A stretch of DNA of 15,984 bases from Candidatus Odinarchaeota archaeon (GTDB taxonomy: Archaea > Asgardarchaeota > Odinarchaeia > Odinarchaeales > Odinarchaeaceae): positions 1 to 15,984 of the forward strand of contig JAWBON010000028.1 of NCBI GenBank assembly GCA_038826135.1, given 5' to 3'. Made by a program: the position numbers and the translations under genes. Of this stretch, positions 1-15,984 are shown one piece after another (position 1 is the first letter of the stretch; each line of letters begins with the position of its first letter). The notes under the pieces are model-generated. The model saw only the letters and a list, made by a program, of their open reading frames with translations, made no database searches and had not been told where the DNA came from.

Positions 1-1
1 T

Positions 2-127
2 GTAAAGATAATTTATGTTAACACCTGTTCCGCAGTCAACCATTATAAGTTCATCTTCACCAATAAGATAACAGTTCGAATCATATAAAACACCGGGAAT
101 AAAGTAAAGATAATCTAGAACCTTCAT
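2..127 (-). CDS. MBL-fold metallo-hydrolase, N-terminal 42 aa (runs off the left edge; not in the ORF track)
   Basis: Manual translation from ATG at 127 gives MKVLDYLYFIPGVLYDSNCYLIGEDELIMVDCGTGVNINYLY. The S-N-x-Y-L-I...V-D-x-G pattern is typical of MBL-fold N-termini. A GAGG SD-like site lies at 136-139 on the minus strand. Confidence 0.8.
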   Translation of the reverse strand, partial: MKVLDYLYFIPGVLYDSNCYLIGEDELIMVDCGTGVNINYLY

Positions 128-142
128 ATTAAACGCCTCTAC

Positions 143-154
143 AAAAATTTATAT
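143..154 (+). promoter_or_regulatory. Putative archaeal BRE/TATA promoter for the 201..1412 gene
   Basis: AAAAATTTATAT (A-rich BRE plus TTTATA) about 47 nt upstream of the ATG. The identical 12-mer precedes the tRNA (1773-1784) and the CoA-binding gene (6330-6341). Confidence 0.55.
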
Positions 155-200
155 CAGCTAAAAGTATTATATTATTTAACTCTTATCGATGTGACGGAAA

Positions 201-1412
201 ATGGCAGAAGAAATTGAGAAATTAGTAGATAAACTCAAAACTGGGATAAATCTTCCGAATGTACGTGTAGGATTATTCGACATTCAAGGCCACATATTAT
301 ACTCCTCGCTCGGTGAGAAAGCGTCTGAATTAGCTTCAAAGCTTACTAAAGGAGCTTTCGCTGCTTGGGATATAGGCGACTACCAGGTGAAACACTTAGA
401 GAAAGGGTGTCTGCTAGTATCTAGGGTGACTGAAAAACTAGCATTAGCTATCGATTCATTTGAGAGAGAGGGACTTGTAATAGTCACTATGGGGGCTTTG
501 ATGAAAAGATTTGCAGATGAGTTTGAAAAAATAGATAAACTATTACCTGGGAAACCTATATCGGTACCAATCCCGGAGGAGAAACCTGTCGCGGAGGCTC
601 CTGCAAAAATAGAAGCCAAGCCTGAACCTGTTAAACCCGTCGCGGAGACTGCTGTTAAAACCCAGCCTACTTCGCCTTTAATTAACATAACCCCGGACCT
701 TATTCTAACAGTTTCCCAGGCGAATATTAACAAAATTGAAATGGATCCTATAATGCTCTCTCTGATACGGGGCTTCGACGGTATTAAACCTGTTTCAGAG
801 GTTATTAAAATAGCTGGAGTTGATTTTAATAATGCAATGCCCCGTATCACTAAACTTGTTGAAAATAATATTTTAAAAGTTGTTTCAAAACCAGAGGAGG
901 ATAACCTCACCTATCAATATGTTTACGAGCTGGTCCCTCCTTACACACCGGATAATGTCGCTGAAAGAGCGTGCGCTGGTAGAAGCGATGAAGTGGTTAC
1001 TATAATGGTTAATTTAGATAGGGGTTATACGGTGGAAGAACTATCCGTCGGTCTTTCAAAAGTAGGTCTTAAGAAAACACCTCAAGAAGTATACGAGATA
1101 TTAGAATATTATAGAGGCATAAACGTTGCCAAGATTAAGCAGATAGGAAGCGGAGATATCAGTGAATTACTGAAGAACCCGGCTTACCAAGCGATTTACA
1201 CGTACACTCCTGGCATGAAATATGAGGAGGCTGTTAAAAAACTTGTAATCGGCGATAGGAAAACTATTATTGTGTTAAGAAATATTGATTTAAGAAGACC
1301 GGTTGCGGAAATATATAATGGTATACGAAGCCTTAACATTGAAACAACACCTGAGGAAGTGTTAAAAATATTTGAAGAGTTGGAGAGAAGAGGGATAATT
1401 AAAAAAACATAA
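201..1412 (+). CDS. Hypothetical multidomain protein: roadblock/LC7-like N-terminal domain, Pro/Glu/Lys-rich linker, three winged-helix-like repeats
   Basis: aa 1-115 follow an alpha-beta-beta-alpha-beta-beta-beta-alpha pattern (VRVGLFDIQGHILYSS). aa 116-160 are a low-complexity PEEKPVAEAPAK linker. aa 182-229, 238-313 and 329-403 are wHTH-like, and repeats 2 and 3 align by eye (YQYVYELVP...KTPQEVYEILEYY vs YQAIYTYTP...TTPEEVLKIFEEL). The CDS is certain; domain calls are from pattern recognition. Confidence 0.6.
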   Translation: MAEEIEKLVDKLKTGINLPNVRVGLFDIQGHILYSSLGEKASELASKLTKGAFAAWDIGDYQVKHLEKGCLLVSRVTEKLALAIDSFEREGLVIVTMGALMKRFADEFEKIDKLLPGKPISVPIPEEKPVAEAPAKIEAKPEPVKPVAETAVKTQPTSPLINITPDLILTVSQANINKIEMDPIMLSLIRGFDGIKPVSEVIKIAGVDFNNAMPRITKLVENNILKVVSKPEEDNLTYQYVYELVPPYTPDNVAERACAGRSDEVVTIMVNLDRGYTVEELSVGLSKVGLKKTPQEVYEILEYYRGINVAKIKQIGSGDISELLKNPAYQAIYTYTPGMKYEEAVKKLVIGDRKTIIVLRNIDLRRPVAEIYNGIRSLNIETTPEEVLKIFEELERRGIIKKT

Positions 1413-1472
1413 CCGGGATTTTATAAAAAATTAAATAATACTTATATGATATAATTAATTGAAGGTGGTGTT

Positions 1473-1703
1473 ATGACTGTTGTTTTCATGTTAGTGGAGG
1501 TTGAGACTGGGAAAATACATGACGTGTTAGAGAAGCTGAAGCTGATAGAGGGTGTTAAAGAAATCTACGCTATTACAGGCCCCTATGACATAATAGCGAA
1601 AGTGTCAGCTAAGGATATGGAGACTGTTAAAAATATTGTTGAAAAAATTCACGGTATAGAAGGGATTGTTAGAACACTCAGCTCTATAGTGCTGCCTTTC
1701 TAA
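1473..1703 (+). CDS. Stand-alone Lrp/AsnC ligand-binding (RAM) domain protein, no HTH
   Basis: 76 aa with VFMLVEVETG...EGVKEIYAITGPYDIIAKV...IEGIVRTLSSIV. SD GAAGGTGGTG immediately upstream. Confidence 0.9.
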   Translation: MTVVFMLVEVETGKIHDVLEKLKLIEGVKEIYAITGPYDIIAKVSAKDMETVKNIVEKIHGIEGIVRTLSSIVLPF

Positions 1704-1772
1704 AACCCTGCTCATTTCCTTTTTTATTACACTATAATTAATAAAGAGTTTAGTTTATTCACCGGAATATAA

Positions 1773-1784
1773 AAAAATTTATAT
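1773..1784 (+). promoter_or_regulatory. Putative BRE/TATA promoter of the tRNA-Gln gene
   Basis: AAAAATTTATAT ending about 35 nt upstream of the mature tRNA 5' end, consistent with a short 5' leader. Confidence 0.65.
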
Positions 1785-1856
1785 TTTGAAGAATTTATTC
1801 GGTATTCTAGGTTAGCGTAGCCCGGTGGTGTAGTGGCCAAGCATCAGGGACTCTGG

Positions 1857-1889
1857 TCAGCTCATAACTTTGATTACGAGCTGGTGGAA
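1857..1889 (+). other. tRNA intron 1 (33 nt, canonical position 37/38)
   Basis: Inner helix CAGCTC(1858-63)/GAGCTG(1878-83); bulges G1855-G1856-T1857 and A1888-A1889-A1890; relaxed central helix CUCU/GUGG (1 C-G, 2 U-G, 1 mismatch). Confidence 0.9.
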
Positions 1890-1899
1890 ATCCTTGGAC

Positions 1900-1926
1900 A
1901 GTGGTTAGTTAAAATACCACCCTGAA
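1900..1926 (+). other. tRNA intron 2 (27 nt, non-canonical position 48/49, variable region/T-stem junction)
   Basis: Three registers give the same mature tRNA, but the best BHB is at 1900-1926: inner helix GTGGT/ACCAC, central UUGG(1894-97)/CCUG(1921-24) with 3 of 4 pairs, bulges ACA and AAA, outer helix TCC(1891-93)/GGA(1928-30). Confidence 0.85.
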
Positions 1927-1937
1927 AGGAGTTCGAA

Positions 1938-1964
1938 GTATTAAGCTATATGCTTAAACGGAAA
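1938..1964 (+). other. tRNA intron 3 (27 nt, non-canonical position 59/60, T loop)
   Basis: Central helix UUCG(1932-35)/CGGA(1959-62) fully paired including one G-U; bulges AAG and AAT; inner hairpin TTAAGC-TATAT-GCTTAA; the outer helix is the T stem. Confidence 0.9.
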
Positions 1965-2030
1965 TCTCCTCCGGGCTACCATTTTATATTTCAGCATCAT
2001 GGTTTTCAAAATGGTTTAAGAGGTTATGAG

Positions 2031-2714
2031 ATGATTAAACTTGTTTTATTCGATCTTTATCTAACATTGATCAATATCAGCGGTGTTGATCAGGAGGAGC
2101 AGAATAAAGCAGCGTACAATGTTTTATGCCATGCTGGTTATAACCTAGAGTTTGAAAAATTCAAAGAAGTTTTCAAAAAAAATTACGATAAATGGAGACA
2201 GTACAGGCAAAACTCTCTTATCGAAGTTAACCCACGTGTATGGTGGCAAGAAACGTTGTTAAAATTAGGTGTGCCCTCTAAATTTAAACTCGTAGAGAAT
2301 ATTCTAGAAGAAAGGCATAAAATATTTTTGAAAGGGATTGAACTGTATGATGATGTAATAGATGTTTTAAATCGCTTAAAAGAAGCGGGTATACTGATAG
2401 GTATAATGAGTAATTGTTCGGATGCTAGGTATGCTAAAGAGGAGTTAGAATATTTAGGTATATCCTCCTATATCGATGTTTTCATATCTTCAGCGGATTA
2501 TGGGAGGAGAAAACCTGATATAAATCTCTTCTCGGATGTGTTATCCAGCCTCCCTTTTACAATGGAGCAAATTATAATGGTCGGAGACGATTATAAAAAT
2601 GATGTGGAGCCGTGGGGGAGACTAGGAGTTAAAGCCTATTTATTAGACAGAGATGGGAAAAACACCGGCAGCAACATCATACACACATTATATGAGTTAG
2701 AGAGTATTATATAA
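2031..2714 (+). CDS. HAD-superfamily hydrolase (subfamily IA-like); start corrected from 1950 to 2031
   Basis: Motif I FDLYLTL just after M2031, motif II IMSN, motif III RKPD, motif IV VGDDYKND. The ORF-track N-terminal extension overlaps the tRNA. AAGAGGT SD-like site upstream of 2031. Confidence 0.9.
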   Translation: MIKLVLFDLYLTLINISGVDQEEQNKAAYNVLCHAGYNLEFEKFKEVFKKNYDKWRQYRQNSLIEVNPRVWWQETLLKLGVPSKFKLVENILEERHKIFLKGIELYDDVIDVLNRLKEAGILIGIMSNCSDARYAKEELEYLGISSYIDVFISSADYGRRKPDINLFSDVLSSLPFTMEQIIMVGDDYKNDVEPWGRLGVKAYLLDRDGKNTGSNIIHTLYELESII

Positions 2715-2718
2715 CGCA

Positions 2719-3675
2719 TTAAACTACTTTAGCACCGCATTCGCTGCAGAACTTAGAGTTATTAGAGAGCTCTGCACCGCATTTACTGCAAAACTTATTT
2801 CCAGTTTTTGTCGGCTTTAAAGGCTGACCGCATTGTAAACAGAAATTAGCGGAGACAGGTGATTGAGCACCGCAGTTAGAGCAAACCATCATTCTCATAG
2901 CAGGTTGCTGGGCTTGCTGTAATAGTTGAGGTATAAGCATCATACCTGTGCCGATTGAGGCTGAACCTGATTTACCAAGCTCCTTAGCTGCAGCTTTAAC
3001 AGCTTCCAGCGTAGCCATTTTATCAGCTGGCACACCGCTAGTAATCCAGAAAACTCGTTCCCTATACTCGTCGGTGGTATCTAAACCTAGGAATTTTAAC
3101 TCTGTTAAATCAATACCCCATCTTTTAAACATGCTTCTTACATTAGCTTTCACCCTTTCACTTGTCTCATCCACCTGTGTGAAAACAGTTTTAAGATCAT
3201 GCGCTGCTAGGTAATCCATACATTTCTCCACTATGAATGAGCGGAGAAAATTAGTAACTGATATAGTATCATATGTATGCTGATTGCCGACAACATTGAT
3301 TACGAAAAGTTTCGGATCCTCGATTTTAAAATAGAATTCTCCGTGAAACAGTAACGGTACAGGGTCACTTGATTGCCCTCTTCCCCCAAATTTACCTTGA
3401 ATCTCGGAGCGTGTGACAAAGATAACCTCAGCTGTGAAAGGGCTTTTATCCCACCCTCTAATCGTCTGATATATTTTTGTAAGTAAAGGTAAATTAGCCG
3501 TGGTTAACTCATGTCTTCCAGGCCCGAAAACATCATAAGCTTTACCGTCTCTGTAGAAGATGGCTGACTGATTCTCTCTAACTATTAGTGCTGAACCCCA
3601 GCCAAGTCTATCCACAGGATATTTCCATACTATTTCATTCGCCCCAGCATTACTCCATTCAATAACTTGCGGCAT
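2719..3675 (-). CDS. SPFH/Band-7 domain protein with C-terminal zinc ribbons (YdjI-like)
   Basis: N-terminal IVWKYP...LIVRENQSAIFYRDGKAYDVFGPGRHELTTANLPLL...FTAEVIFV is characteristic of this SPFH subfamily. Four CxxC motifs (CSNC, CLQC, CSKC, CSEC) at the C-terminus. ATG 3675 preferred over TTG 3699, which overlaps the upstream gene. Confidence 0.88.
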   Translation of the reverse strand: MPQVIEWSNAGANEIVWKYPVDRLGWGSALIVRENQSAIFYRDGKAYDVFGPGRHELTTANLPLLTKIYQTIRGWDKSPFTAEVIFVTRSEIQGKFGGRGQSSDPVPLLFHGEFYFKIEDPKLFVINVVGNQHTYDTISVTNFLRSFIVEKCMDYLAAHDLKTVFTQVDETSERVKANVRSMFKRWGIDLTELKFLGLDTTDEYRERVFWITSGVPADKMATLEAVKAAAKELGKSGSASIGTGMMLIPQLLQQAQQPAMRMMVCSNCGAQSPVSANFCLQCGQPLKPTKTGNKFCSKCGAELSNNSKFCSECGAKVV

Positions 3676-3691
3676 AACACATCCGTCCCAA

Positions 3692-4240
3692 TCAGTCAAT
3701 AAATCCGTTCATATACTCTTCTCGTTTAGAAAACTTATCTTCAAATTGAGATACAGTATCTTCAACCCTTCTAATAAGGTTTCTAAGCTTTGAAACACTA
3801 GGCTCATAGCTTTCATCAATTAGGTCTCTCACCACCTCACGTATAATATCAATGTCTTCTATAAGAGAGGCATCGAAACTGTACATTCTATCAAGTTCAC
3901 GCTCATTTATTTTAATCGCGTTGAAAAAACCACTGTAACCGTAATCGCTGTAAAGAACTCTCTGAGACACCGTGTCAAAACGCGCTATTAGATTTTCAAT
4001 AGGAGACCACAATTCTTGTAAACCAGCTTCAACAATTCTATCTCGTGTATCCTTTAATTTATCCAATGAGCTTTTCAGATGCGAGTATAAGTTTTCACGT
4101 AATATTTTATCCGCTTCTCTTCGAAGCTCCTTGCTTTTATACCCATGGTATAATGGGATATACCTTATTATTTTTTCTAGAAAGGTCCGCTTAGAATCCT
4201 TAGCTACTTTTTGTTTAATTCTCTCAGATTCATCAGCCAA
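3692..4240 (-). CDS. Hypothetical all-helical protein, co-transcribed with the SPFH gene
   Basis: About 182 aa with conserved-looking motifs IPLYHGYKSKELRREADKILR and GYSGFFNAIKINERELDRMYSFD. TTG 4240 has GGTGTG upstream; GTG 4249 is the alternative start. The gap to the SPFH ATG is 16 nt. Confidence 0.75.
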   Translation of the reverse strand: MADESERIKQKVAKDSKRTFLEKIIRYIPLYHGYKSKELRREADKILRENLYSHLKSSLDKLKDTRDRIVEAGLQELWSPIENLIARFDTVSQRVLYSDYGYSGFFNAIKINERELDRMYSFDASLIEDIDIIREVVRDLIDESYEPSVSKLRNLIRRVEDTVSQFEDKFSKREEYMNGFID

Positions 4241-4356
4241 ATTCCACACCGCTTAATAAAATCTTTTAAATTAATTATTCACTAACCTAGAATATTGTAG
4301 AGCTGTTAATATAAGAGTTTTGTAAAAAAAATAGGGAGAAATAGTAAAAGTATTTC

Positions 4357-5709
4357 TTAGATTACTCCCTGGGCTATCATAGCTTTAGCCACTTTTAAGA
4401 AGCCTGCGATGTTAGCCCCTACCACATAGTTGCCGGGGGAACCATATTTACTAGCGGTCTCATATGTGGTTTTATGAATGTTAACCATTATGTCTCTCAA
4501 TTTAGCTTCCACTTCTTCTCTAGTCCAGCTGAGTCGTTGACTGTTCTGAGACATTTCAAGCCCGCTTGTAGCTACACCACCCGCGTTTGCGGCCTTACCA
4601 GGCCCGAAGGCTACACCGTTTTTCATAAGATATTCTGTAGCATCCAATGTTGTTGGCATGTTAGCGCCTTCGCAGACTATTTTAACCCCGTTTTTAACAA
4701 GCGCTCTTGCATCTTCTATGTCTAATTCATTCTGAGTAGCACACGGAATTGCCACATCCACATGAGTTCCTATTCTCCAAGGACGCTGATTTGAGAGGTA
4801 TTGTACGTTACCACCGAAGTGATCAGCATACTCCTTTATTCTACCTCGCTTAACATTCTTCAATTCTAGTAGGTAATCCAGTTTTTTAGCGTCAATACCG
4901 TCAGGATCGTAAATTGTTCCGTCAGAGTCACTAGCCGTCACAACTTTACCGCCTAGCTGTGTTACTTTCTGAATAGCGTACTGGGCTACGTTACCTGACC
5001 CGCTGATCATTACAATCTTACCTTTAAAGTCCATTTTCTTTACCTTCAACATTTCAGAAGCAAAGTAGGTTACACCGTAGCCGGTAGCCTCTGTTCTCAC
5101 AAGAGAGCCGCCCCATTCTAAGCCTTTCCCTGTAAGAACACCTGTGAACTCGTTTTTAAGCTTCTTATACACACCGAACATGTAGCCGATCTCGCGGGTA
5201 CCTACACCGATATCTCCGGCCGGAACATCTGTATCAGGTCCAACATGCCTAAATAATTCTAGCATAAAGGCTTGGCAGAATCTCATGATTTCTGTTTCAG
5301 ACTTACCTTTAGGATCGAAGTCAGCTCCACCTTTACCTCCACCCATAGGCAACCCTGTAAGAGCGTTTTTAAAGATTTGCTCGAAACCTAAGAATTTTAT
5401 TATACCCTCGTAAACAGTGGGGTGGAATCTTATACCACCCTTATAAGGGCCTATTGCAGAGTTAAACTGGATTCGCATACCTCTGTTAACCTGGATCTCG
5501 CCTTTATCGTCAACCCATGGAACTCTGAAGATTACTTGACGCTCAGGTTCTACTATACGTTCAAGTATTTTATGTTGTTTAAACTCTGGGTGTTTCTCAA
5601 TAGCAGGTCTGAGTGATTCTAAAACTTCTTTAACAGCTTGATGGAATTCTTTTTGAGCCGGGTTTTTTTCAACAACCTTCTCGTATACACTAGTAATGTA
5701 ATCAACCAT
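4357..5709 (-). CDS. gdhA: NADP-specific glutamate dehydrogenase (GdhA, E. coli-like subfamily)
   Basis: GPYKGGIRFHP, KNALTGLPMGGGKGG, DVPAGDIGVG, TGKG...RTEATGYG, GSGNVAQY, EGANMP and KAANAGGVA motifs. ATG 5709 (SD GGGGT) preferred over TTG 5718. Confidence 0.97.
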   Translation of the reverse strand: MVDYITSVYEKVVEKNPAQKEFHQAVKEVLESLRPAIEKHPEFKQHKILERIVEPERQVIFRVPWVDDKGEIQVNRGMRIQFNSAIGPYKGGIRFHPTVYEGIIKFLGFEQIFKNALTGLPMGGGKGGADFDPKGKSETEIMRFCQAFMLELFRHVGPDTDVPAGDIGVGTREIGYMFGVYKKLKNEFTGVLTGKGLEWGGSLVRTEATGYGVTYFASEMLKVKKMDFKGKIVMISGSGNVAQYAIQKVTQLGGKVVTASDSDGTIYDPDGIDAKKLDYLLELKNVKRGRIKEYADHFGGNVQYLSNQRPWRIGTHVDVAIPCATQNELDIEDARALVKNGVKIVCEGANMPTTLDATEYLMKNGVAFGPGKAANAGGVATSGLEMSQNSQRLSWTREEVEAKLRDIMVNIHKTTYETASKYGSPGNYVVGANIAGFLKVAKAMIAQGVI

Positions 5710-5760
5710 TTCAAACAACCCCTACAAGAATAAATACTTTAACGCTTTAAACAGTGAAGC

Positions 5761-5778
5761 AAAGTTTTATATAACTTT
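5761..5778. promoter_or_regulatory. Near-palindromic TATA-containing element in the divergent gdhA/rpl13e gap
   Basis: AAAGTT-TTATAT-AACTTT reads as BRE plus TATA on both strands. On the minus strand it lies about 55-65 nt upstream of the gdhA start. Confidence 0.45.
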
Positions 5779-5920
5779 ATCGATGAATGTTTTAAACCAG
5801 TAATAACAATGATACTTATTAGTTTAAATATTATTTCAGTAAGCTAGCTTAGTGAATAATAGTATCATGCTGGTGAAAACAGTAATTAATTAAATTTTCA
5901 TGAGAAAGGGTGATTGGAAT

Positions 5921-6274
5921 ATGGAATTACCGAGAAGCCTAGTAAAATGTCCTTACACACCTTATATTATCCGGGCTGGACGCGGCTTCAGTCTAGGAGA
6001 GATAAAGGAGAGCGGTTTGAAAGTAGACTTGTTGAAAAAATTAGGCGTATACATTGATAAGAGGAGGAGAAGTGTGCACAAAGAGAATATTGAAGCTTTA
6101 AAGAATATTATTAAAGAGCAGAAACCAGTAAGCCCCACTGAAAAAAGCGGTGCAGCAGCCAAGAAAACCGAAGTTAAAGTTAAGAAGACAGGTGGGGGAA
6201 CAACAGAGACCAAGAGAGGGGGGAGAAGAACATCTAACCTCAAAGTTAAACGTGAAAAAACAGCCAGTCAATAA
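5921..6274 (+). CDS. rpl13e: Large-subunit ribosomal protein L13e (eL13) with a basic C-terminal tail
   Basis: IRAGRGFSLGEIKESGL...LGVYIDKRRRSVHKENIEAL is the eL13 signature. ATG 5921 has SD GGGTGA; ATG 5900 is the alternative start. Confidence 0.93.
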   Translation: MELPRSLVKCPYTPYIIRAGRGFSLGEIKESGLKVDLLKKLGVYIDKRRRSVHKENIEALKNIIKEQKPVSPTEKSGAAAKKTEVKVKKTGGGTTETKRGGRRTSNLKVKREKTASQ

Positions 6275-6329
6275 ACTGGGTGCATGCTTTTCCCATATTT
6301 TAAAAAGCCGGTTTTAAGAACTCACATAA

Positions 6330-6341
6330 AAAAATTTATAT
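6330..6341 (+). promoter_or_regulatory. Putative BRE/TATA element upstream of the CoA-binding protein gene
   Basis: Third copy of AAAAATTTATAT, about 65 nt before the ATG at 6407. Confidence 0.4.
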
Positions 6342-6406
6342 TTAATAGGAAGCGGGCTTAAAAAAGTTAAAATATATTCTAAACTTTCAATATATTGGTG
6401 AAGTGA

Positions 6407-6856
6407 ATGAGTAAAAAAGGCGTATCTCAAATTTTAACCATGGGATCAGATGAAATTCAAAAAATACTTTATAAAGCCAAGGTTATCGCCGTTGTAGGTA
6501 TGTCAAGGGATCAGAGTAAACTGGCGCATATAATACCTAAATACTTACGAGAACATGGTTATCAGGTCATACCTATCAACCCTAATGCAAAAGAAATTCT
6601 AGGATTAAAATCTTATAGCACGCTTGATGAAGTCCCAAGCGATGTGAAAATAGATATTTTAGAAATTTTCAGGCCTCCGGAAGAGATACCTGGTTTAGTT
6701 GAAGCTGCGCATAAAAGGAATATCCCTGTTGTATGGTTACAGGTAGGGTTGAGAAGTAGGGAGGCTGCGGAGAAAGCTGCTAAATACGGTATAATATTCA
6801 TAGAGAATCTGTGCATACGGAGAGAGCATATGTTAATGATGGGCACATTCTTCTAG
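6407..6856 (+). CDS. CoA-binding protein (YccU-like Rossmann fold)
   Basis: IAVVGMSRDQSK...GYQVIPINP...ILGLKSYSTLDEVP...IDILEIFRPP...VWLQVG...FIENLCIRREH. SD GGTGA upstream. Confidence 0.93.
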   Translation: MSKKGVSQILTMGSDEIQKILYKAKVIAVVGMSRDQSKLAHIIPKYLREHGYQVIPINPNAKEILGLKSYSTLDEVPSDVKIDILEIFRPPEEIPGLVEAAHKRNIPVVWLQVGLRSREAAEKAAKYGIIFIENLCIRREHMLMMGTFF

Positions 6857-7011
6857 AGACACTGCATAGTTGAAATTAGGAATTAAAGTGTTTTCAGCCT
6901 TCAAAAACAATTCATTCTATGATTGTTAAATCATAGCGTCTTACTGGAATTCACATATTCTTAAGGAGTTTATTCAAGTATACAGCAACCAGTAGGTTTC
7001 GTAAAAATATA

Positions 7012-7932
7012 TTACAATCTTTTTATAATATTCAGTCTTCTTTGAACCTCACTAAGGGTCATGTCGAATTCAGGGCCCGTATACTCTACCATTATAGATG
7101 ATGCTGCTGACGCAAAGTAGGCTGCTTCTAAAAGACTGGCCCCTTTTAAAAGCTGCGTTATAAACGCTCCAGCGTAACTATCACCAGCCCCCGTGGGATC
7201 CCGGGCGAAAGTTTGGTAGGGTGGAATTCTGAAAACACCATCCTTAAAGGCTATTATTGAACCTCTATCACCTAAGGTTACTATTGCCACTTTTCCCCCG
7301 CACCATTCCATGAATAAGCGAGCGGATTTAAATGGATCCTTTAATCCGCTTATAGCCTCAGCTTCAAATTCATTAGGTTTAACGATGTCAACTACACCTA
7401 TTATCTCACGAACAGTGTCTATGTTAAAAACTTTTTCCACCATGCCGTCGGAGCCGACTCTACGGATAAGGCCTTGAGGATCAAGAAAGATTTTCGCCTT
7501 ACTTATTCTCTTCACCGCCTTTATAAAATCCAAGTCAATCTCGTTTAATATAGGCCCGAGCAGTATAAACTTAGAATTTCGTAAAGCTTCAACAGTTTTA
7601 TTTGAAAGAGTTTCAAACAATATTTTCCCAGCTACACCTAAGACTTGAAGCGTTCTATCCCCGTTTTCTAAATATACCAGTTTAAATCCGCCGGTATTAT
7701 CACTCTTTAAAACCTGTAAGTCCTCAACACCGAATCTTCTAATATCTTTAATAAATCTTTCATGATAATCTAATCCAACACAACCAATAAGTCCAACCCG
7801 GTTTACCCCAAGTTTTTTAGCTACTAATGCAGCGTTTGTACTACATCCAGATAGAACCCGCCCGTTCGTTGAAATATATGGAGTTATTATTTCATCATAT
7901 ACAGGGTTCCCTATCGCTACCAGATCGAACAT
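7012..7932 (-). CDS. PfkB/ribokinase-family kinase, probably of the myo-inositol kinase subgroup
   Basis: GNPVYD, SGCSTNAA, VKPNEFEA, TLGDRGS and DPTGAGDSYAGAF (anion hole/catalytic Asp) motifs, plus a DPQGLIR motif. ATG 7932 follows the upstream stop by 1 nt; GTG 7941 is the alternative start. Confidence 0.9.
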   Translation of the reverse strand: MFDLVAIGNPVYDEIITPYISTNGRVLSGCSTNAALVAKKLGVNRVGLIGCVGLDYHERFIKDIRRFGVEDLQVLKSDNTGGFKLVYLENGDRTLQVLGVAGKILFETLSNKTVEALRNSKFILLGPILNEIDLDFIKAVKRISKAKIFLDPQGLIRRVGSDGMVEKVFNIDTVREIIGVVDIVKPNEFEAEAISGLKDPFKSARLFMEWCGGKVAIVTLGDRGSIIAFKDGVFRIPPYQTFARDPTGAGDSYAGAFITQLLKGASLLEAAYFASAASSIMVEYTGPEFDMTLSEVQRRLNIIKRL

Positions 7933-7933
7933 A

Positions 7934-8539
7934 TCACTCACCCTGGGTCATACTCCAAGTATATTTAAGACGTTGCACTACGGTGATCTGAGATAAGATG
8001 GCAATCAGTAACAGGCAGATGTCTAGGATTGTATAATCTAAAATTACAGGTAAACTGTAAAAGTAGGTTAGTAAACAACCAATTATGAGAATTAAAAGCT
8101 TTTCCTGCCTTTCAGCTATACCCACTGTGCATTTATCTAGTTTGCCAACAGATTCAGCTTTAGCACGTACGAAACTTGCCATAATCATACTGAATATAGC
8201 TACAAAAGGTATATACCATGTCGAATATATGCTGAACGCTATGCCGAAAACTATACTAAATTCAGCATACCTATCTAGCAGATGATCCCATACAGCGCCG
8301 AATCTTGTAGCTCTTCCAGTAGCTCTTGCAACAGCTCCATCTAACATGTCAACTAACCCTGTTAACACTATGAATAAGACGCCTAAAACCAGCTGGTTAA
8401 AAGCTAGAAGCAGCCCAGCGCAGATGCTTACAATAAAACTTATAAACGTTATAATATTAGGGGTTAAACCTAGTTTTGAAAAAGCCTCACCCACTGGCAT
8501 CATCATCTTCTGATATTTTTCTCTTAATTTACCGAACAT
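7934..8539 (-). CDS. CDP-alcohol phosphatidyltransferase, likely archaetidylinositol-phosphate synthase (AIPS/PgsA-like)
   Basis: LTPNIIT, the signature DMLDGAVARATGRATRFGAVWDHLLDR, SFVRAKAE and GIAERQE, with multiple TM segments. ATG 8539 has a GGTG SD; 8563 is the alternative start. Confidence 0.9.
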   Translation of the reverse strand: MFGKLREKYQKMMMPVGEAFSKLGLTPNIITFISFIVSICAGLLLAFNQLVLGVLFIVLTGLVDMLDGAVARATGRATRFGAVWDHLLDRYAEFSIVFGIAFSIYSTWYIPFVAIFSMIMASFVRAKAESVGKLDKCTVGIAERQEKLLILIIGCLLTYFYSLPVILDYTILDICLLLIAILSQITVVQRLKYTWSMTQGE

Positions 8540-8667
8540 AATAACACCGTAAACATCATTCACTAGCTATATTTTTAAACAATATGTTACTTGGTTTAAT
8601 AGATGATTATTCATTTTCCGATAGGTGTAAAAAGACTATTTAAATCAATCTTTATTAAGTGATAGTA

Positions 8668-10323
8668 ATGGATGACGGAAAACTCTGGGTAGATGAAATT
8701 GTTAACGAAATATTGGAGCGCGGAGCAGATAAGATTATAATTAACTCGGGTAAATCAATAAGCGGTCGAATACATATTGGAATATTCAGAGAGCTTTTCA
8801 TCTGCGATAGTTTAACAAGGATTCTAGAGAAAAAAGGCTGTAATGTAGAATTCTATTTTATATTGGATGATTACGATCCAGCTAAACGGTTCCCACCTTA
8901 CATTCCCGCCCATTATGATAAATATACAGGTGTTCCCTTCTCTGATATACCAAGCCCGTTCAGTAGCGGTGAATCATACGCTGAGTTTTTCGCTAACGAG
9001 TTGATTTCCACCTTCCCCTCATTTGGATTAAACCCTAAAATTTTATGGACTTCCAAGTTATATAGCAAACCAGAGATGAAGAATATAATCAGAACCGTGA
9101 TTAACAGAGTTGACGAAATCAGGAGTATACTCGTAAGCTATGTCGGTGAAACACTAAGCGGAGAAGATGCGGAAGAATACAAAAAAGAGATAGCTGGGAG
9201 ATACCCTGTAAGCGTGGTTTGCAAAAAATGCGGTAAAATGCAAATAATTGAGAAAGGCAGAATTATTCCGAATAGAATGTTGGATTATGTTAAGGAAACT
9301 GATGAAGTGGTTTATTTCTGTCATTCATGTAAAGAAGAATTCAAGGAAAAACTTGAATCCGCGCGTTTAAAATTAACCTGGAGAGTTGACTGGCCTGCTA
9401 AATGGTTCCTGCTAAAAGTAACATGTGAACCAGCGGGCAAAGACCACACCGTTAAAGGGGGAGCTTATGACACAGGGCTTCGGATATGCAGAGACATATT
9501 CGGTTACGAAGGCCCTGTTAAGGTAAGTTATGAATGGCTAAGATACGGGGATGTGGATATGAAGACACATAAGGGTATTGTTTTCACTCCCGGAGAATAC
9601 TTGGACATAGGGCCTCCTGAAGTCCTAAGATATTTGATAATCAGAACACCCCCCACTAAACATATAAGTTTCCGACCTGAACTTCTACCCCAGTACATAG
9701 ATGAGTACGAGAGAGTTGAGCGACTGTTCTTTAATCAGGAACCTGATGCAGGTGTCGAAGAGAAATATGAGGCGGATACACTTTACCCACTAACACTTAT
9801 CGACTATAAGTTACAGAGATTAAAACCGAGGTTACCTTTCAGGTTCGCGATCATATTCTCACAGTTAAAAGAGATTATGAGCTGGCGGAAAATACTGGAT
9901 AAAGCTCAAGATGTTGTTAAAAAAATATATAAAACAGAGCATATAACAGATAGCACGTTGAAAGAGATAGAGGATACGATAAGAAAAGGGGAGAGATGGG
10001 TTTTAAAGTACGCGCCTGAAAACTATAAGATAAATATTTCAAACACTGTAAGCGAGGATATTAAAAAAAGCCTCACAGAAACTCAAAAAAACTTTATTAA
10101 AAAAATTATTGAACTACTATTAAATACAGAGTTAACAGAGGAGACAGTTCAGAATCAAATATTTAATATTATAAGAAATATTCAAGGACTAGATGTTAAA
10201 AAAGGTTTTGAAACAATATATATGATAATTCTCGGTAAAAAATTCGGGCCTAGACTGGGCTCATTCATACTATCACTAGACAGAGACTGGTTAATTAAAA
10301 GATTAAAAACCGTGTTAACGTAA
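8668..10323 (+). CDS. lysS: Class I lysyl-tRNA synthetase
   Basis: SGKSISGRIHIGIFRE (HIGH region), DDYDP, CxxC pairs (CKKC, CHSC), KLTWRVDWPAKW, EPAGKDH...GG and C-terminal GPRLG. ATG 8668 preferred over GTG 8659. Confidence 0.97.
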   Translation: MDDGKLWVDEIVNEILERGADKIIINSGKSISGRIHIGIFRELFICDSLTRILEKKGCNVEFYFILDDYDPAKRFPPYIPAHYDKYTGVPFSDIPSPFSSGESYAEFFANELISTFPSFGLNPKILWTSKLYSKPEMKNIIRTVINRVDEIRSILVSYVGETLSGEDAEEYKKEIAGRYPVSVVCKKCGKMQIIEKGRIIPNRMLDYVKETDEVVYFCHSCKEEFKEKLESARLKLTWRVDWPAKWFLLKVTCEPAGKDHTVKGGAYDTGLRICRDIFGYEGPVKVSYEWLRYGDVDMKTHKGIVFTPGEYLDIGPPEVLRYLIIRTPPTKHISFRPELLPQYIDEYERVERLFFNQEPDAGVEEKYEADTLYPLTLIDYKLQRLKPRLPFRFAIIFSQLKEIMSWRKILDKAQDVVKKIYKTEHITDSTLKEIEDTIRKGERWVLKYAPENYKINISNTVSEDIKKSLTETQKNFIKKIIELLLNTELTEETVQNQIFNIIRNIQGLDVKKGFETIYMIILGKKFGPRLGSFILSLDRDWLIKRLKTVLT

Positions 10324-10337
10324 ACTGGTGGAGAATT

Positions 10338-10568
10338 ATGGCAAAAATAATATCATATATTTTAATAACAACTAAAATAGGTAAAGAACATGAAATAGCT
10401 GAATTAACTAGAAAAATCAGAGGAGTAACTGAAAGCCTTATAGTTTACGGTCAATTTGACCTAATCGTCCGCATAGAAACATCTGATCTCCAAGAATTAG
10501 ATCAAGCCGTCACTTTAATAAGAAAAATGGAGGGCGTTGAACAGACAAGCACATTAATATCATCATAA
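10338..10568 (+). CDS. Stand-alone Lrp/AsnC ligand-binding domain protein, no HTH
   Basis: SYILITTKIGKEHEI...GVTESLIVYGQFDLIVRI...MEGVEQTSTLI. SD GGTGGAG; 14 nt downstream of lysS. Confidence 0.9.
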   Translation: MAKIISYILITTKIGKEHEIAELTRKIRGVTESLIVYGQFDLIVRIETSDLQELDQAVTLIRKMEGVEQTSTLISS

Positions 10569-10591
10569 GATAAAGATATTGGGTTCAAAAA

Positions 10592-10885
10592 TTATCCGAG
10601 GAATTTTCTAACAGCCACATCCCCCTTATCTCCTTTAACTACACCTAAACAGCTTGCAGCGCTTGTTAAATCCTGAACAGCTGAGTTTAACATATCCTCA
10701 AAACTGCTAACACCTCTAACAACAGCCACAGGGGCATTGAATTTTTCAGCCACCTTTAAGTCAAAATAGCCACATGACAGTATACCCTTCTCCCCTATTA
10801 TTAAAAGGAGAGGAGGGGATATCGCATCAACCTTTACGCCTACCGCTCTTTTACCGTCGACAACAATAGATTTAACCAAAAACAT
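10592..10885 (-). CDS. YunC/DUF1805 family protein
   Basis: PLLLIIGEKGILSCGYFDLKVAEKF...AVVRGVSSFEDML...A..LGV..G is the family pattern. Confidence 0.88.
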   Translation of the reverse strand: MFLVKSIVVDGKRAVGVKVDAISPPLLLIIGEKGILSCGYFDLKVAEKFNAPVAVVRGVSSFEDMLNSAVQDLTSAASCLGVVKGDKGDVAVRKFLG

Positions 10886-10970
10886 TTAACATCACCGTAA
10901 ACTATTAAATAAGATAATAAATTAGATTATGTTATATTAGTTGTAGTGGAACTATTTAACGGTGTTACTT

Positions 10971-12347
10971 ATGCCAAAGGCTCTAGCATTGTTAAAATGG
11001 GATAATGTGATGGGGGCTGTTCTAGATACTAGGGTTCCAGCCAATTACAACGTCAACGACGAGGAAATTATGAGAATATACATGTCGCATACAATCGGCA
11101 ATGCTGAAGCCCACCCTGTGTTAACGATGAAGCTCGGCGAGTTAAATGTAGCCAGCAAATTTGTAAAACTAGCTAACGGCGAACAGCTTGTGGTTGTATT
11201 CTTCTTAAAAGAAGATGAGCCTGCGGATAAATTCACTAGAATACTTGATGAAGTATCGGACGGAATAATCAACCGAAGAGGAACAGAGGGATTCGAAGAT
11301 TATTTAAAAGATTTACTTGAAACAGTTGAAGCTCAGATAAGACTGGAAGAGGAGATTCCTAGAAAAATATTAGCAGAGTACGGTCTTAGCAGAGAGGAGA
11401 CTGAAGCGTATCTTGCCATGGTTGATAAAGGCCCTATTTCAATCGGTGAAATCGGCTTATACGCTAATGTTCAAGAGACTCAGGCTTCGGGGATAGCGGA
11501 CAGATTACTTAAACTAGGCTTATTAAAATCCATTCCCGGCACTAGGAGATATTTTCAAGCAATACCCCCCTACACAGCTCTTTTAAAACAACTAGGAGAT
11601 TTTAGAGAGTTCCTAGGCTCCATACACAGCGCTGTGCCAACAGTGCTAGCGGAACAATTCCAGCTCTTCGAAGAAGAGGTGAATAATGTTAAATCAAAAA
11701 TATCTAAGGCTTTTGAAGACCAGCTTAAAATGAAGGTTTTCAAAACATTCATAGAGAATATGGTTCAAAACATTGTAGGAAAAGAACTTGACCAGTTAAA
11801 AAATCTCTTCCAAGAAAGAGTTATAGAAGCTTTAAAGGATATAATAACAAACATAGACGGGCATATATCAGTATCCGAGGACACTATGTCAGCGTTATGG
11901 AAGAGAGCTAAATCCACTATAACGTTCAAATTCACAGACGTATGGTTTGTAACAGGTAGAGAGGGGTTCAAGGCTCAAATATCAGATATGTTAAGCAGAG
12001 CTAAAACAAGAATACTAATAGTCACACCTGAGTTAAAGGATCTCGAACCAAGTTACTTCGCGAATTTAAAGGAGTGGGTTAACGTTAGAATATCTACGAA
12101 CATGAACCCCAATAACGGAGAGGATAAGAAAATCTACGAGGAACTGACTAAAAACCCGAATATTAGCATAAAACTCTATTCTAGAAAAGACCTCTGGGCT
12201 ATGGATAAGGATCGGGAGGAGATCCTCATAGGCGCTGTCGCGGAGCAGGGTACACCCGTGGGAATAGCATCCATTGTACCAGAGCATATCAGAATGTTTA
12301 TGCCTATAATTGAACAAGCCTGGGTGGAGGCGCGTAAACTTATTTAA
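10971..12347 (+). CDS. TrmB-like protein (wHTH, helical insert, PLD-like C-terminal domain) with an extra N-terminal longin/uDENN-like domain
   Basis: aa ~137-203 LAEYGLSREETEAYLAMV...LLKLGLLKSIPGTRRYFQAIPP match the TrmB N-terminal HTH. aa ~326-461 VWFVTGREG...AKTRILIVTP match the TrmB effector/PLD-like fold. aa 4-125 are longin-like. The GTG at 10962 is really the SD (GGTG) of ATG 10971. Confidence 0.7.
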   Translation: MPKALALLKWDNVMGAVLDTRVPANYNVNDEEIMRIYMSHTIGNAEAHPVLTMKLGELNVASKFVKLANGEQLVVVFFLKEDEPADKFTRILDEVSDGIINRRGTEGFEDYLKDLLETVEAQIRLEEEIPRKILAEYGLSREETEAYLAMVDKGPISIGEIGLYANVQETQASGIADRLLKLGLLKSIPGTRRYFQAIPPYTALLKQLGDFREFLGSIHSAVPTVLAEQFQLFEEEVNNVKSKISKAFEDQLKMKVFKTFIENMVQNIVGKELDQLKNLFQERVIEALKDIITNIDGHISVSEDTMSALWKRAKSTITFKFTDVWFVTGREGFKAQISDMLSRAKTRILIVTPELKDLEPSYFANLKEWVNVRISTNMNPNNGEDKKIYEELTKNPNISIKLYSRKDLWAMDKDREEILIGAVAEQGTPVGIASIVPEHIRMFMPIIEQAWVEARKLI

Positions 12348-12360
12348 TGAAGGGGATAAT

Positions 12361-12798
12361 ATGAGGTTCCTACTCATCCATGCTAAAACTATGAAGTACA
12401 GGGTTACAAAAGAAGTTAAAATATCCGCGAAAGACCCTGCGGATGAAGAGGGCACATGGTTTGAATTTAAAAATGTTTTAGTAGCTTTCACTGCAGTTGA
12501 AGGGTCTGATGAAACTGATCCAGAGGGGATAGCGGAAAAAGGCGTTAAAGAGTTACTCCAAGTAAATGAAAAGATAAAAGCGGAGAGAATTTTAGTCTAC
12601 CCTTATGCTCACTTATTCGCAGACCAGCTTGCAAAACCTAAAATCGCAATACAGATCCTAAGCCTACTAGAGGAGAAACTCAAAGAAGAGAATGTGGAAG
12701 CGTATCGAGCTCCATTCGGCTGGTATAAAGAGTTTAATATTCACTGCCTCGGACACCCGCTCTCAGAAAGCTCAAGAACAGTCTCACTAACCGGTTGA
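12361..12798 (+). CDS. Free-standing archaeal threonyl-tRNA synthetase editing domain (DTD-like fold)
   Basis: MRFLLIHA, LVAFTAVE..D, ILVYPYAHL, RAPFGWYKEF and GHPLSESSR motifs; 145 aa, ending after the editing domain. SD GAAGGGGA before ATG 12361, which also removes the overlap with the upstream gene. Confidence 0.93.
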   Translation: MRFLLIHAKTMKYRVTKEVKISAKDPADEEGTWFEFKNVLVAFTAVEGSDETDPEGIAEKGVKELLQVNEKIKAERILVYPYAHLFADQLAKPKIAIQILSLLEEKLKEENVEAYRAPFGWYKEFNIHCLGHPLSESSRTVSLTG

Positions 12799-12945
12799 AA
12801 AGCATTTCAAAATTCCGCTGTTAAACAAGCCTATATTCCTAGAACTATCACTAATTTTTTATTACAGATTAACTGGGATAATATAAGCACCAACATGGAG
12901 CTGAGAATAAGATAACAGCTTACAAATAAACAGAGAGGCTTTAAC

Positions 12946-14010
12946 TTGAATAGAATTAACAAGTTTAAGAAAATAATAGAGGAAAAAGAAATTAATAATT
13001 TCCTTATAAACTCCCCTAGCAATATCTATTATATAACCGGCTTTCATCCAACCACTGAAGCCTATCTTCTATATACAAAGGGTTACGGTTTCGAACTCCA
13101 CGTTACAGAAATAGACTATCAGGAAGCGAAGGATTTAGAGAAAGACTTCACAGTTATTAAAACACCGATTGAATTAACGATCAGCGACCACATGAAAAAA
13201 AGATTAGAAACTCTAGAAGGGGAAGTATACTTAGAGTACACTTATCTAAATTACGCTCTCTTCAATAAATTTTTCATAAACAATAAAAAAGTGAATTTCT
13301 CAAACGGTGACGAGCTAATTACATCGATGAGAGAGGTGAAAGACAGAGGCGAGCTTGAAAAGATCACTAAAGCTATTAAAATAACTGAGAAAGCTGTCAC
13401 AACAGCTCAAATAAATATCCGTCAAGGAAAAACAGAGTTAGAAATAGCTGCTGAAGCGGAATACGAAATGAGGCGAAACGGCGCCGACTGGTTCGCTTTC
13501 GAAAGCTTAATCATAGCTGGTTCAAGAACCGCAAACCCGCATGCGAAAAGTACGATAAACAAGTTGAATAAAGGCGATACAGTAATAGTAGACATAGGAT
13601 GCAAATATGAAGGATACTGCGCAGACATAACAAGAACATTCACTGTGGGAGAGGCAGACAACCGGCAAAGAGAGATATATGGGTTAGTTAAAGAGGCTCA
13701 GGAACTGGCTTTAGAAAAAATCAAGCCTGGAGTTAAAGCAAGCTTTATAGATTTAACAGCCCGCGAATTTTTAAAGGAGAAAGGGTATGATAAATATTTC
13801 ATACACACTTTAGGACACGGCTTAGGTTTAGACGTTCATGAAGCCCCGTCAATTTCTTTCAGAAATCATGAAGAAATAAAACAGGGAAATGTGATAACAA
13901 TCGAGCCTGGAATTTACATTCCAGGTTGGGGTGGTATAAGAATAGAGGACATCGTGGTTGTTGAGGGAGAGGGTGCTAGAATACTCAGCAACCTACCAAA
14001 AGCGATTTAA
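12946..14010 (+). CDS. pepQ: Xaa-Pro aminopeptidase/prolidase (peptidase M24B)
   Basis: Creatinase-like N-terminal domain; metal ligands in DIGCKYEGYCADITRT, HTLGHGLGLDVHE, TIEPGIY and IRIED. TTG start with GAGAGG SD. Confidence 0.93.
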   Translation: MNRINKFKKIIEEKEINNFLINSPSNIYYITGFHPTTEAYLLYTKGYGFELHVTEIDYQEAKDLEKDFTVIKTPIELTISDHMKKRLETLEGEVYLEYTYLNYALFNKFFINNKKVNFSNGDELITSMREVKDRGELEKITKAIKITEKAVTTAQINIRQGKTELEIAAEAEYEMRRNGADWFAFESLIIAGSRTANPHAKSTINKLNKGDTVIVDIGCKYEGYCADITRTFTVGEADNRQREIYGLVKEAQELALEKIKPGVKASFIDLTAREFLKEKGYDKYFIHTLGHGLGLDVHEAPSISFRNHEEIKQGNVITIEPGIYIPGWGGIRIEDIVVVEGEGARILSNLPKAI

Positions 14011-14111
14011 GAGGGAATCGCTACAATAGTATCGGGATCAACTGGCTAATAATAAGCGCCTGAAGACTTACAATTATTTTAAGCAGTTGCTCTTACAAGA
14101 GGTTTAATTGA

Positions 14112-14879
14112 ATGGTTGATTTACTTAGCCCAATCTATAAAATTTATAAATGGAAGCTATGGAGGCAGATAAAAAACGGGGAAATGCCACAGCATATAGG
14201 GGTAATATTAGACGGTAACAGAAGATATGCGCGGGAAAGAGGGTTAAACCCCCTCCTAGGTCATAGAATAGGGGCTGAAAAGGTCCGAGATTTTTTAAAA
14301 TGGTGCTGGCATCTCAACATTCAAGTAGTAACCTTATACGCGCTATCCGTGGAAAATCTTCAACGCGATCGAGAGGAAGTTGAACACATATTTGAAATAG
14401 CCCGGGAGAAATTTCAAGAGTTACTCACCGATCCGAGTATTAAAAAAAACCAGGTTCGTGTGAGAGCATTAGGGAGGAGAGAGTTGTTAAGCAAAACCCT
14501 CCTACCAGTAATCGAGGAGGCTGAGAGAACAACAGAAAACTATAATAAACACTTCTTAAACATAGCACTCGGTTACAGTGGAAGAGGAGAGTTAACCGAT
14601 GCTCTTAGAAAAATATCCGACCAAATAACGAAAGGTGTTTTAAAACCTGCGGATATTACAGAAGACCTTATAAGCAAACACCTATACACAGCGGGTTTAC
14701 CGGATCCTGATCTAATAATTAGAACATCAGGAGAGGAGCGCTTATCAAATTTCTTATTATGGCAGTCAGCATACTCTGAATTATATTTCTGCGATGTTTA
14801 CTGGCCTGAAGTTAGAGAAATAGATCTTTGGAGAGCGATCAGAATATATCAGAAGAGGAAAAGAAGATTTGGTAAGTAG
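14112..14879 (+). CDS. uppS: cis-prenyltransferase (undecaprenyl/polyprenyl diphosphate synthase)
   Basis: PQHIGVILDGNRRYA, YALSVENLQR, YSGRGE, PDPDLIIRTSGEERLSNFLLWQSAYSELYF and a C-terminal RRFG (RxG) motif. Confidence 0.96.
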   Translation: MVDLLSPIYKIYKWKLWRQIKNGEMPQHIGVILDGNRRYARERGLNPLLGHRIGAEKVRDFLKWCWHLNIQVVTLYALSVENLQRDREEVEHIFEIAREKFQELLTDPSIKKNQVRVRALGRRELLSKTLLPVIEEAERTTENYNKHFLNIALGYSGRGELTDALRKISDQITKGVLKPADITEDLISKHLYTAGLPDPDLIIRTSGEERLSNFLLWQSAYSELYFCDVYWPEVREIDLWRAIRIYQKRKRRFGK

Positions 14880-15115
14880 CGAAATAAGTAAGCTTAATCG
14901 ATACATGCAAGTCTTTTTAGAATAACAGTAAATTTTAGTAATCTTAATAATATGTTAACAAACTATATAAGTTAAAGAAGACATCAAACATTTACTGGTA
15001 AAAATACGTATAAAAACATAATTCTAACTAGAATTACGCATGTTAAATAATAAGATTTAAAAATTGATTAAAAAATGGTTTTGAAGATTAACTATTACAA
15101 CCATAGGCGAGCTAT

Positions 15116-15595
15116 ATGAAAGAGGAGAAAAAGAAAGGTATAAAAGACATTATTAAAAGCAAGCTGAAAAAGATTTCGAATATCGCGCTTATAGTCGACG
15201 GTTCAAGCATAGAGAAAGAGGATCTTATAACCCAGCTTAAAAATATTAAAAAAGCTATAGAAGACGTAGGGAAACTGAGAACCTCTAAAATAGTTGTTAA
15301 AACACTACCCTCAGAAGAAGAGGTTAAGAAAATCCAGAAATTAGGGTTCGAAATAATAATCAGAGCTAGTGAAACAGACGTCTACTTTGTTCTAGAAGCG
15401 ATGGAGCTATTATATAATCCGAAAATAGAGGCTGTGGCGATTTCGACAAGAAACGAAGAGTTCCTGCAAATACTCAACAAAGGAAGAGAGAAAGGTAAAA
15501 AAACGATTTCAATAAATCCCTCAGGCAGCACAATAGACACGGAGATGTTAAAAAACCTTTCAGATATTACAATAGATCTTAACGTAACCGGATGA
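15116..15595 (+). CDS. NYN/PIN-like domain protein (TIGR00288/DUF88-like) with degenerate acidic motifs
   Basis: IALIVDG, ETDVYFVLEAMELLYNPKIEAVAISTRNEEFLQILNKGREKGKKTISI and LKNLSDITIDL. Confidence 0.78.
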   Translation: MKEEKKKGIKDIIKSKLKKISNIALIVDGSSIEKEDLITQLKNIKKAIEDVGKLRTSKIVVKTLPSEEEVKKIQKLGFEIIIRASETDVYFVLEAMELLYNPKIEAVAISTRNEEFLQILNKGREKGKKTISINPSGSTIDTEMLKNLSDITIDLNVTG

Positions 15596-15724
15596 AAAAA
15601 TAAATTGAACTGAAAAATCTACCGCTAATATTTCTTTAACTGTTTAATTTTAAAGTGTGTTTAAGATTCTAATATTTTTATAATTAATATGATTTAGTCA
15701 ACATTCTGTTAAGTTATAGTTAAA

Positions 15725-15982
15725 CTAATCTATTTTTATTACAGAGCCTGCTGCTATTCTCACAGCTTTTTCACTGTATTTTTCCAGTATTTTCTCCTTG
15801 TGTTTTGTGCAATGGCTTGGCATGATTTTGTCAACGCTGTTTAAAATATCTAATTTATTAAAATCGTGGAAGCCGCCTATTAGATAATTTACTTTACCTA
15901 TGCTAGATGCCTCTTCAAGTATTTTTTCTAATCCTGGGTGCGCGCAGCCAGATACAACTATAATATTATTTTTATGCTTTAT
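15725..15982 (-). CDS. MBL-fold metallo-hydrolase (COG1237-like, annotated as 7,8-dihydropterin-6-ylmethyl-4-(beta-D-ribofuranosyl)aminobenzene-5'-phosphate synthase family), C-terminal 85 aa; not in the ORF track
   Basis: Manual translation: IKHKNNIIVVSGCAHPGLEKILEEASSIGKVNYLIGGFHDFNKLDILNSVDKIMPSHCTKHKEKILEKYSEKAVRIAAGSVIKID*. The GCAHPG, GGFH and PSHCT motifs are diagnostic. Confidence 0.88.
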   Translation of the reverse strand: MKHKNNIIVVSGCAHPGLEKILEEASSIGKVNYLIGGFHDFNKLDILNSVDKIMPSHCTKHKEKILEKYSEKAVRIAAGSVIKID

Positions 15983-15984
15983 TA

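Follow-up and report, generated by a model that had tools for sequence, protein, structure and literature searches.

A roadblock protein with an NPRL2-like winged-helix tail in Odinarchaeia: a probable adaptor related in layout to GATOR1 subunits

Gene and domain layout

We analysed a stretch of 15,984 nucleotides (the window) from a Candidatus Odinarchaeota archaeon (GenBank assembly GCA_038826135.1, contig JAWBON010000028.1, positions 1 to 15,984, forward strand). Based on the listing of its open reading frames (ORFs), positions 201..1412 of the plus strand encode a protein of 403 amino acids, in which a roadblock domain is followed by a linker and three winged helices (wH1, wH2 and wH3). 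The gene and this domain pattern, both proposed in an earlier note made from the sequence alone, were confirmed. The ORF is a real gene, as ten full-length homologues with 46-94% identity were found, several of them carrying the name Candidatus Odinarchaeia. The gene is present in a single copy in the host genome (1.26 Mb, 93% complete), and a survey of 301 Asgard genomes found the whole architecture only in the two families of the host's order. One genome that is 78% complete had the 5' fragment alone, at a contig end. The homologue P0010 is labelled Hodarchaeota at NCBI, and a matching sequence occurs in a genome of the host's own order.

The roadblock domain (201..545, plus strand; aa 1-115) was modelled with a pLDDT of 93.7. 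The full-length fold, made from 11 sequences, was unreliable at aa 1-157, and the N-terminal domain was refolded from 52 rows. The model has the order helix-strand-strand-helix-strand-strand-strand-helix and shows, together with its structural matches, the five-stranded sheet between helix 2 and a terminal helix pair that defines roadblock/LC7 domains. Every top match in the structural search was a roadblock, as the earlier note had expected of this MglB-like N terminus, and the profile matches included 8yqk, 7f8m and 7yh1. Pfam Robl_LC7 misses this head, which belongs to a divergent subfamily. Longin domains have no N-terminal helix and two C-terminal helices (PMC10933270); the model opens with a helix at residues 2-15. 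A homodimer was predicted via helix 2 and strand 3 (aa 44-65), the pairing characteristic of roadblock/LC7 domains, with a score of 0.45 compared to 0.00 for the best control; of solved homo-pairs, 20 of 30 attain the mark used for this score, compared to one of 23 single chains. The GP motif between strands 1 and 2, which marks longins of the GTPase-activating protein (GAP) type (PMC12290439), is absent; at the equivalent turn, each of the 11 orthologues has Gly30 and then His or Asn. The only candidate arginine of the roadblock, R75, lies in the model at the end of strand 4, ahead of a four-residue turn. It is invariant in 11/11 orthologues, yet replaced by Lys in 28 of the 52 family rows.

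Conservation among orthologues, as pairwise identity, was 72% for the roadblock domain compared to 31% for the linker (546..680, plus strand; aa 116-160), which is variable, rich in Pro, Glu, Ala and Lys, and modelled with pLDDT <50. The P/E/K-rich linker described earlier was thus recovered, aa 118-160 being Pro/Glu-rich.

The tail consists of wH1 (681..887; aa 161-229, 'DG-type'), wH2 (912..1145; aa 238-315), which is the most conserved unit, and wH3 (1185..1409; aa 329-403), all on the plus strand. The three units were modelled confidently, with block means of ~67-97 across aa 161-403 and >80 for nearly all blocks. The earlier note had described them as three tandem repeats; three units are indeed present, but they are not equal. 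wH2 and wH3 are clear duplicates (median cross-comparison of their hidden Markov models (HMMs) 26-36 bits, shuffled maximum ~6), whereas wH1 did not align with either above shuffled controls in HMM or hhalign comparisons, one hhalign match being mere overlap of the two input alignments. As wH3 was found in Odinarchaeia proteins only, it looks like a duplication specific to this lineage. Conservation within wH2 was 84-87% at aa 238-249 and 253-262 and 61% at aa 294-306, so that it sits on the first strand and first helices, away from the recognition helix. The recognition helices of wH1, wH2 and wH3 were conserved at 42%, 61% and 58%, and their net charges were -1 to +3, -3 to 0 and -3 to 0, respectively. 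The units are near neutral and their recognition helices acidic or variable, whereas an Lrp control, taken from one genus, was strongly basic (+6 to +10) with a near-invariant recognition helix. The basic, conserved recognition helix of winged helix-turn-helix (HTH) transcription factors was not found in any of the three.

Resemblance of the tail to NPRL2

NPRL2 heads the structural match lists for the tail. NPRL2 162-236 is the segment on which wH1 superposes, and by sequence the match extends beyond wH1 to the first strand of the unit that follows; the NPRL2 likeness noted earlier for this repeat was therefore upheld by structure and by profile, and we regard wH1 as homologous to NPRL2 ~162-236. 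Most Foldseek alignments spanned ~260-280 columns at an rmsd of 15-18 Å and came without matched ranges. No NPRL2/3 chain was in the profile list of wH2/3, which does not exclude a relationship. With Pfam, NPR2 gave 11.6 bits (best orthologue 16.6), below the curated cut-off of 27.5, and NPR3 and HTH_NPRL3 did not match the protein. As NPR2 gave nothing above its cut-off in the 301 Asgard genomes, Pfam cannot rank Asgard NPRL2 candidates.

Other winged helices were also recovered. The wH1 profile matched SNF8/Vps22 weakly (E 0.013); ESCRT-II chains were not among the 50 structural matches listed, which again is compatible with a relationship. The next-best structural neighbours of the tail include peptide-binding RRE/PqqD domains. 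No significant match came from searching PDB sequences and NCBIfam with the single sequence. In the ESM Atlas, the search by features returned unnamed Asgard clusters and the search by shape weak rows at TM 0.2-0.3, including NPR2 and bacterial PatA_N/DUF8082, which we treat as leads only.

Neighbouring genes

A stand-alone Lrp/AsnC ligand-binding (RAM) domain of 76 aa is encoded 60 bp downstream (1473..1703, plus strand; Pfam PF01037, E 3.8e-17). The RAM gene lies directly 3' of the roadblock gene in every orthologous locus read and is never fused to an HTH: in each of them, a stop codon and a gap set its ORF apart. Its orthologues are 78-97% identical in five other Odinarchaeia genomes and at that cut-off confined to the host's order; across families it is 78-79% identical, compared to 46-48% for the roadblock protein. 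The RAM protein is a possible partner. However, the linkage is suggestive only, because 29 of 53 neighbouring pairs (55%) of a sister-family genome also adjoin in the host, which has at least seven short RAM-only ORFs.

On the other side, a divergent gene with a metallo-beta-lactamase (MBL) fold starts 73 bp upstream. Its 5' end (2..127, minus strand) is an open-ended ORF that continues on contig C72, as the window start overlaps the end of that contig by ~120 bases and the two join across this gene. The upstream MBL-fold gene and the downstream RAM gene are kept in ~8 species, while the outer flanks vary. No small-GTPase gene was found within the window, in agreement with the earlier note. 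Elsewhere in the host genome, 16 matches to the Ras family were counted, of which nine are strong. DEPDC5/IML1 gave no PF12257 match in this 93% complete genome, although a remote homologue could escape Pfam.

Several other genes of the window were noted. A second stand-alone RAM ORF of 76 aa (10338-10568, plus strand) comes right after a 554-aa ORF (8659-10323) that looks like a class I lysyl-tRNA synthetase. At 2719-4249 on the minus strand, an SPFH/Band-7 protein with a double zinc ribbon overlaps a conserved 185-aa helical ORF without a Pfam family, and the pair is kept in locus L093. A 461-aa protein (10962-12347, plus strand) has a TrmB-type winged HTH at aa 137-203; by eye, its N terminus resembles a GAP-type longin, with Trp-Asp and then Gly-Ala in place of GP, and leads into a coiled coil and then a TrmB-like domain at the C terminus.

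Relatives of the protein

In a census of all sequences fetched in the analysis we found roadblock-wH1-wH2-wH2 (n=12, Odinarchaeia only), roadblock-wH1-wH2 (n=24), roadblock-wH2 (n=25) and roadblock-wH1 (n=15), besides double roadblocks, longin-headed forms and a zinc-ribbon-headed wH1-wH2-wH2 paralogue. The shorter forms have no RAM neighbour and occur under Bathyarchaeota names and, in bacteria, on Chloroflexota contigs, one of them with a Rho gene; the idea of an Asgard-only family was rejected on these grounds. In Chloroflexota, mostly Anaerolineae (L165-L176), roadblock-wH2 or roadblock-wH1-wH2 genes lie directly upstream of YjeF (NAD(P)HX repair) and MBL-fold genes, and in four of five carriers a canonical roadblock and a GTPase-like ORF of 120-186 aa were found as well. 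The Chloroflexota rows formed one clade beside an Asgard family in the roadblock tree (node 93/82; 116 columns, midpoint root, 69 rows after removal of near-duplicates); with this node support, no donor is claimed.

The same wH profile recovered longin-wH proteins (L077, L082, L086, L089). Several longin-headed relatives adjoin Rab-like genes (L080, L082), and they fit the NPRL2-like family of Liu et al. (10.1101/2020.10.19.343400). The host genome itself has a 365-aa longin-wH ORF (C17:9310-10404). In two genomes the zinc-ribbon three-wH paralogue begins ~14 bp behind a Rab-like gene; in one other lineage it follows, as P0012, a ubiquitin gene at the edge of the ESCRT cluster. In two Asgard families, V4R/TRAPP-Bet3-like genes come immediately after roadblock(-wH1) relatives (L010-L015, L051); other roadblock-wH1 relatives adjoin gelsolin genes.

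The Odinarchaeia paralogue at L103:553-2495, L120:13452-15400 and L160:4667-6293, which lies behind a Rab-like gene in one family and behind ubiquitin next to the ESCRT cluster in another lineage, joins a Cys-pair, 'HGxPxH' head, without a match in Pfam or NCBIfam, to the same three winged helices, and is followed by a 90-100-aa protein consisting of that head alone; it was not found in the host genome, which keeps the Rab-like gene (C51). Baldrarchaeia (L036:1501-2817, P0018 cluster) combine this roadblock head with a ~250-aa domain that by eye resembles a nucleotidyltransferase fold.

Discussion

We favour, by a narrow balance of probability, the view that the protein is a non-catalytic, protein-binding homodimeric adaptor or scaffold by which partners are coupled to an NTPase switch. 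Helix 2 and strand 3 would hold two roadblock domains together in the platform typical of roadblocks, a fold that is modelled and a dimer that is predicted. Judging from the sequence, the flexible linker on each chain may carry the three winged helices, giving six per dimer. The tail most likely binds proteins and not DNA, since it is of the same family as the NPRL2/3 tail, which binds DEPDC5 and the partner subunit in GATOR1 (PMC8534245); this homology is supported by computation for wH1. The dimer might then join its partners to the switch, most plausibly one of the many small GTPases of the genome.

Several observations speak against this adaptor. A GTPase gene adjoins the roadblock gene in none of the orthologous loci read. 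The dimer prediction may merely mirror likeness to solved roadblock dimers. The helix-2 face, which MglB-type dimers offer to GTPases, is weakly conserved, helix 2 being the least conserved roadblock element (56% in orthologues and 18% family-wide, compared to 88-91% for the strands in orthologues). Furthermore, the best sequence matches of the wH1 profile were Lrp/AsnC DNA-binding HTHs (E 7e-7), with NPRL2 behind (E 8.8e-5), and the wH2/3 profile matched Fur first.

These last matches are what one would expect of a factor that acts in transcription or on chromatin, with tandem HTHs held together by a roadblock dimer and a split Lrp-like arrangement in which the RAM protein senses amino acids as a subunit of its own. 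Amino acids are ligands of stand-alone RAM proteins, which also form joint assemblies with Lrp regulators (PMC2995911); the RAM gene is next in all orthologous loci, and the divergent gene upstream fits as well. Given the near-neutral winged helices, we think such a regulator improbable. An MglB-style regulator is also unlikely, if slightly less so. Here the roadblock dimer would bind a Rab-, Rag- or MglA-like GTPase and speed hydrolysis or exchange without a catalytic residue, the tail only localising it. The best structural matches include MglB, which works without contributing an arginine finger (PMC13408092); Ras-family genes are plentiful in the genome, the sister three-wH protein follows a Rab-like gene, and most Chloroflexota carriers have the canonical roadblock and GTPase-like ORF. 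However, the variable helix 2 argues against it, the co-encoding of MglB with a cognate MglA-like GTPase has no counterpart here, and the GTPase-linked paralogue is wholly without a roadblock.

The earlier note had also suggested an Asgard forerunner or analogue of a nutrient-signalling GTPase regulator. In its strongest form, the dimer, or a heterodimer with the longin-wH protein of the host, would act on a Rag-like GTPase under control of the RAM sensor. The overall layout, the circular permutation that relates roadblock and longin (PMC3521125), the tightly linked and better conserved RAM gene, the longin-wH ORF and the invariance of R75 in orthologues all agree with this. Against it stand the roadblock in place of a longin, the missing GP motif, the frequent Lys at R75, the lack of a DEPDC5/IML1 match or a linked GTPase, a third winged helix that is a local, lineage-specific duplicate, and a family that is not exclusive to Asgards, with shorter, partly bacterial relatives devoid of a RAM neighbour. 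Closer longin-wH candidates exist in other Asgards (Liu et al. preprint) and in the host genome. The forerunner claim is accordingly not supported, and we consider it very unlikely that this NPRL2/3-shaped protein and its co-encoded RAM sensor control a small GTPase in Odinarchaeia; if true, this would mean that an archaeal switch coupling amino acids to a GTPase was assembled, before TOR existed, from the parts that also make up GATOR1. Least probable is an ESCRT-II-like tandem-wH adaptor of the ubiquitin/ESCRT system. It draws on the SNF8/Vps22 match and on the position of P0012, but the same paralogue adjoins a Rab-like gene in another family, so that the ESCRT position is not conserved; the roadblock gene itself never adjoins ESCRT genes, and NPRL2 is better by sequence and first in the structural lists.

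The protein is one member of a shuffled archaeal kit, in which roadblock, longin or zinc-ribbon heads are joined to one to three such winged helices. The NPRL2/3-type tail is thus a free module in archaea, and a layout of platform head and three winged helices exists in Odinarchaeia, probably via local duplication. Asgard roadblocks (PMC10933270) and Asgard NPRL2-like longin proteins (Liu et al.) have been published, which limits the surprise; for the roadblock-headed three-wH form no publication was found within an incomplete coverage of the literature. Partner screens are practical, as the protein is small, single-copy and conserved and has no predicted membrane need, and as the number of small GTPases in the compact genome is limited.

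Comparison with known systems

Among the nearest known systems are the peptide-binding winged helices of RRE/PqqD and the N-terminal domain of FAM91A1. RREs are defined by three strands followed by three helices (PMC12710340), whereas the strands are dispersed in our protein and a RiPP context is absent. The roadblock dimers MglB, LAMTOR2/3 and the Asgard Thor-RB and MKD1-RB (PMC10933270), as well as the roadblock of a Loki roadblock-longin protein (PDB 8YQK/8YQL), share its fold, element order and predicted dimer interface. Unlike them, it represents a divergent subfamily with a fused wH tail, a poorly conserved helix-2 face and no GTPase neighbour. The NPRL2-like proteins that Liu et al. report from Thor and a small number of Loki genomes (Fig. 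5c) are likewise Asgard proteins in which a GTPase-platform head is combined with a C-terminal domain of NPRL2 type; their head is a longin, whereas the roadblock head with three winged helices was found only in Odinarchaeia.

NPRL2 and NPRL3 (Npr2/Npr3 of GATOR1/SEACIT) consist of a longin and a winged-helix triad (PMC3521125, PMC3747258), and their longins dimerise and supply Arg78 (PMC8534245). They form a heterodimer and work with DEPDC5, whereas our protein is a predicted homodimer with a long variable linker, and its wH2 and wH3 are a local duplicate with no separate NPRL2 signal. Since it lacks the longin domain, it looks like a related scaffold rather than a proto-GATOR1 enzyme. It is a cousin of the GATOR1 subunits and not their direct forerunner or a member of the NPRL2/3 family, so that domain order should not be taken as orthology. 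What both share is a head of profilin-like fold that dimerises, here by prediction, followed by a winged-helix triad, a layout that NPRL2/3 probably drew from the same archaeal kit and that bears on how the GATOR1 subunits were assembled.
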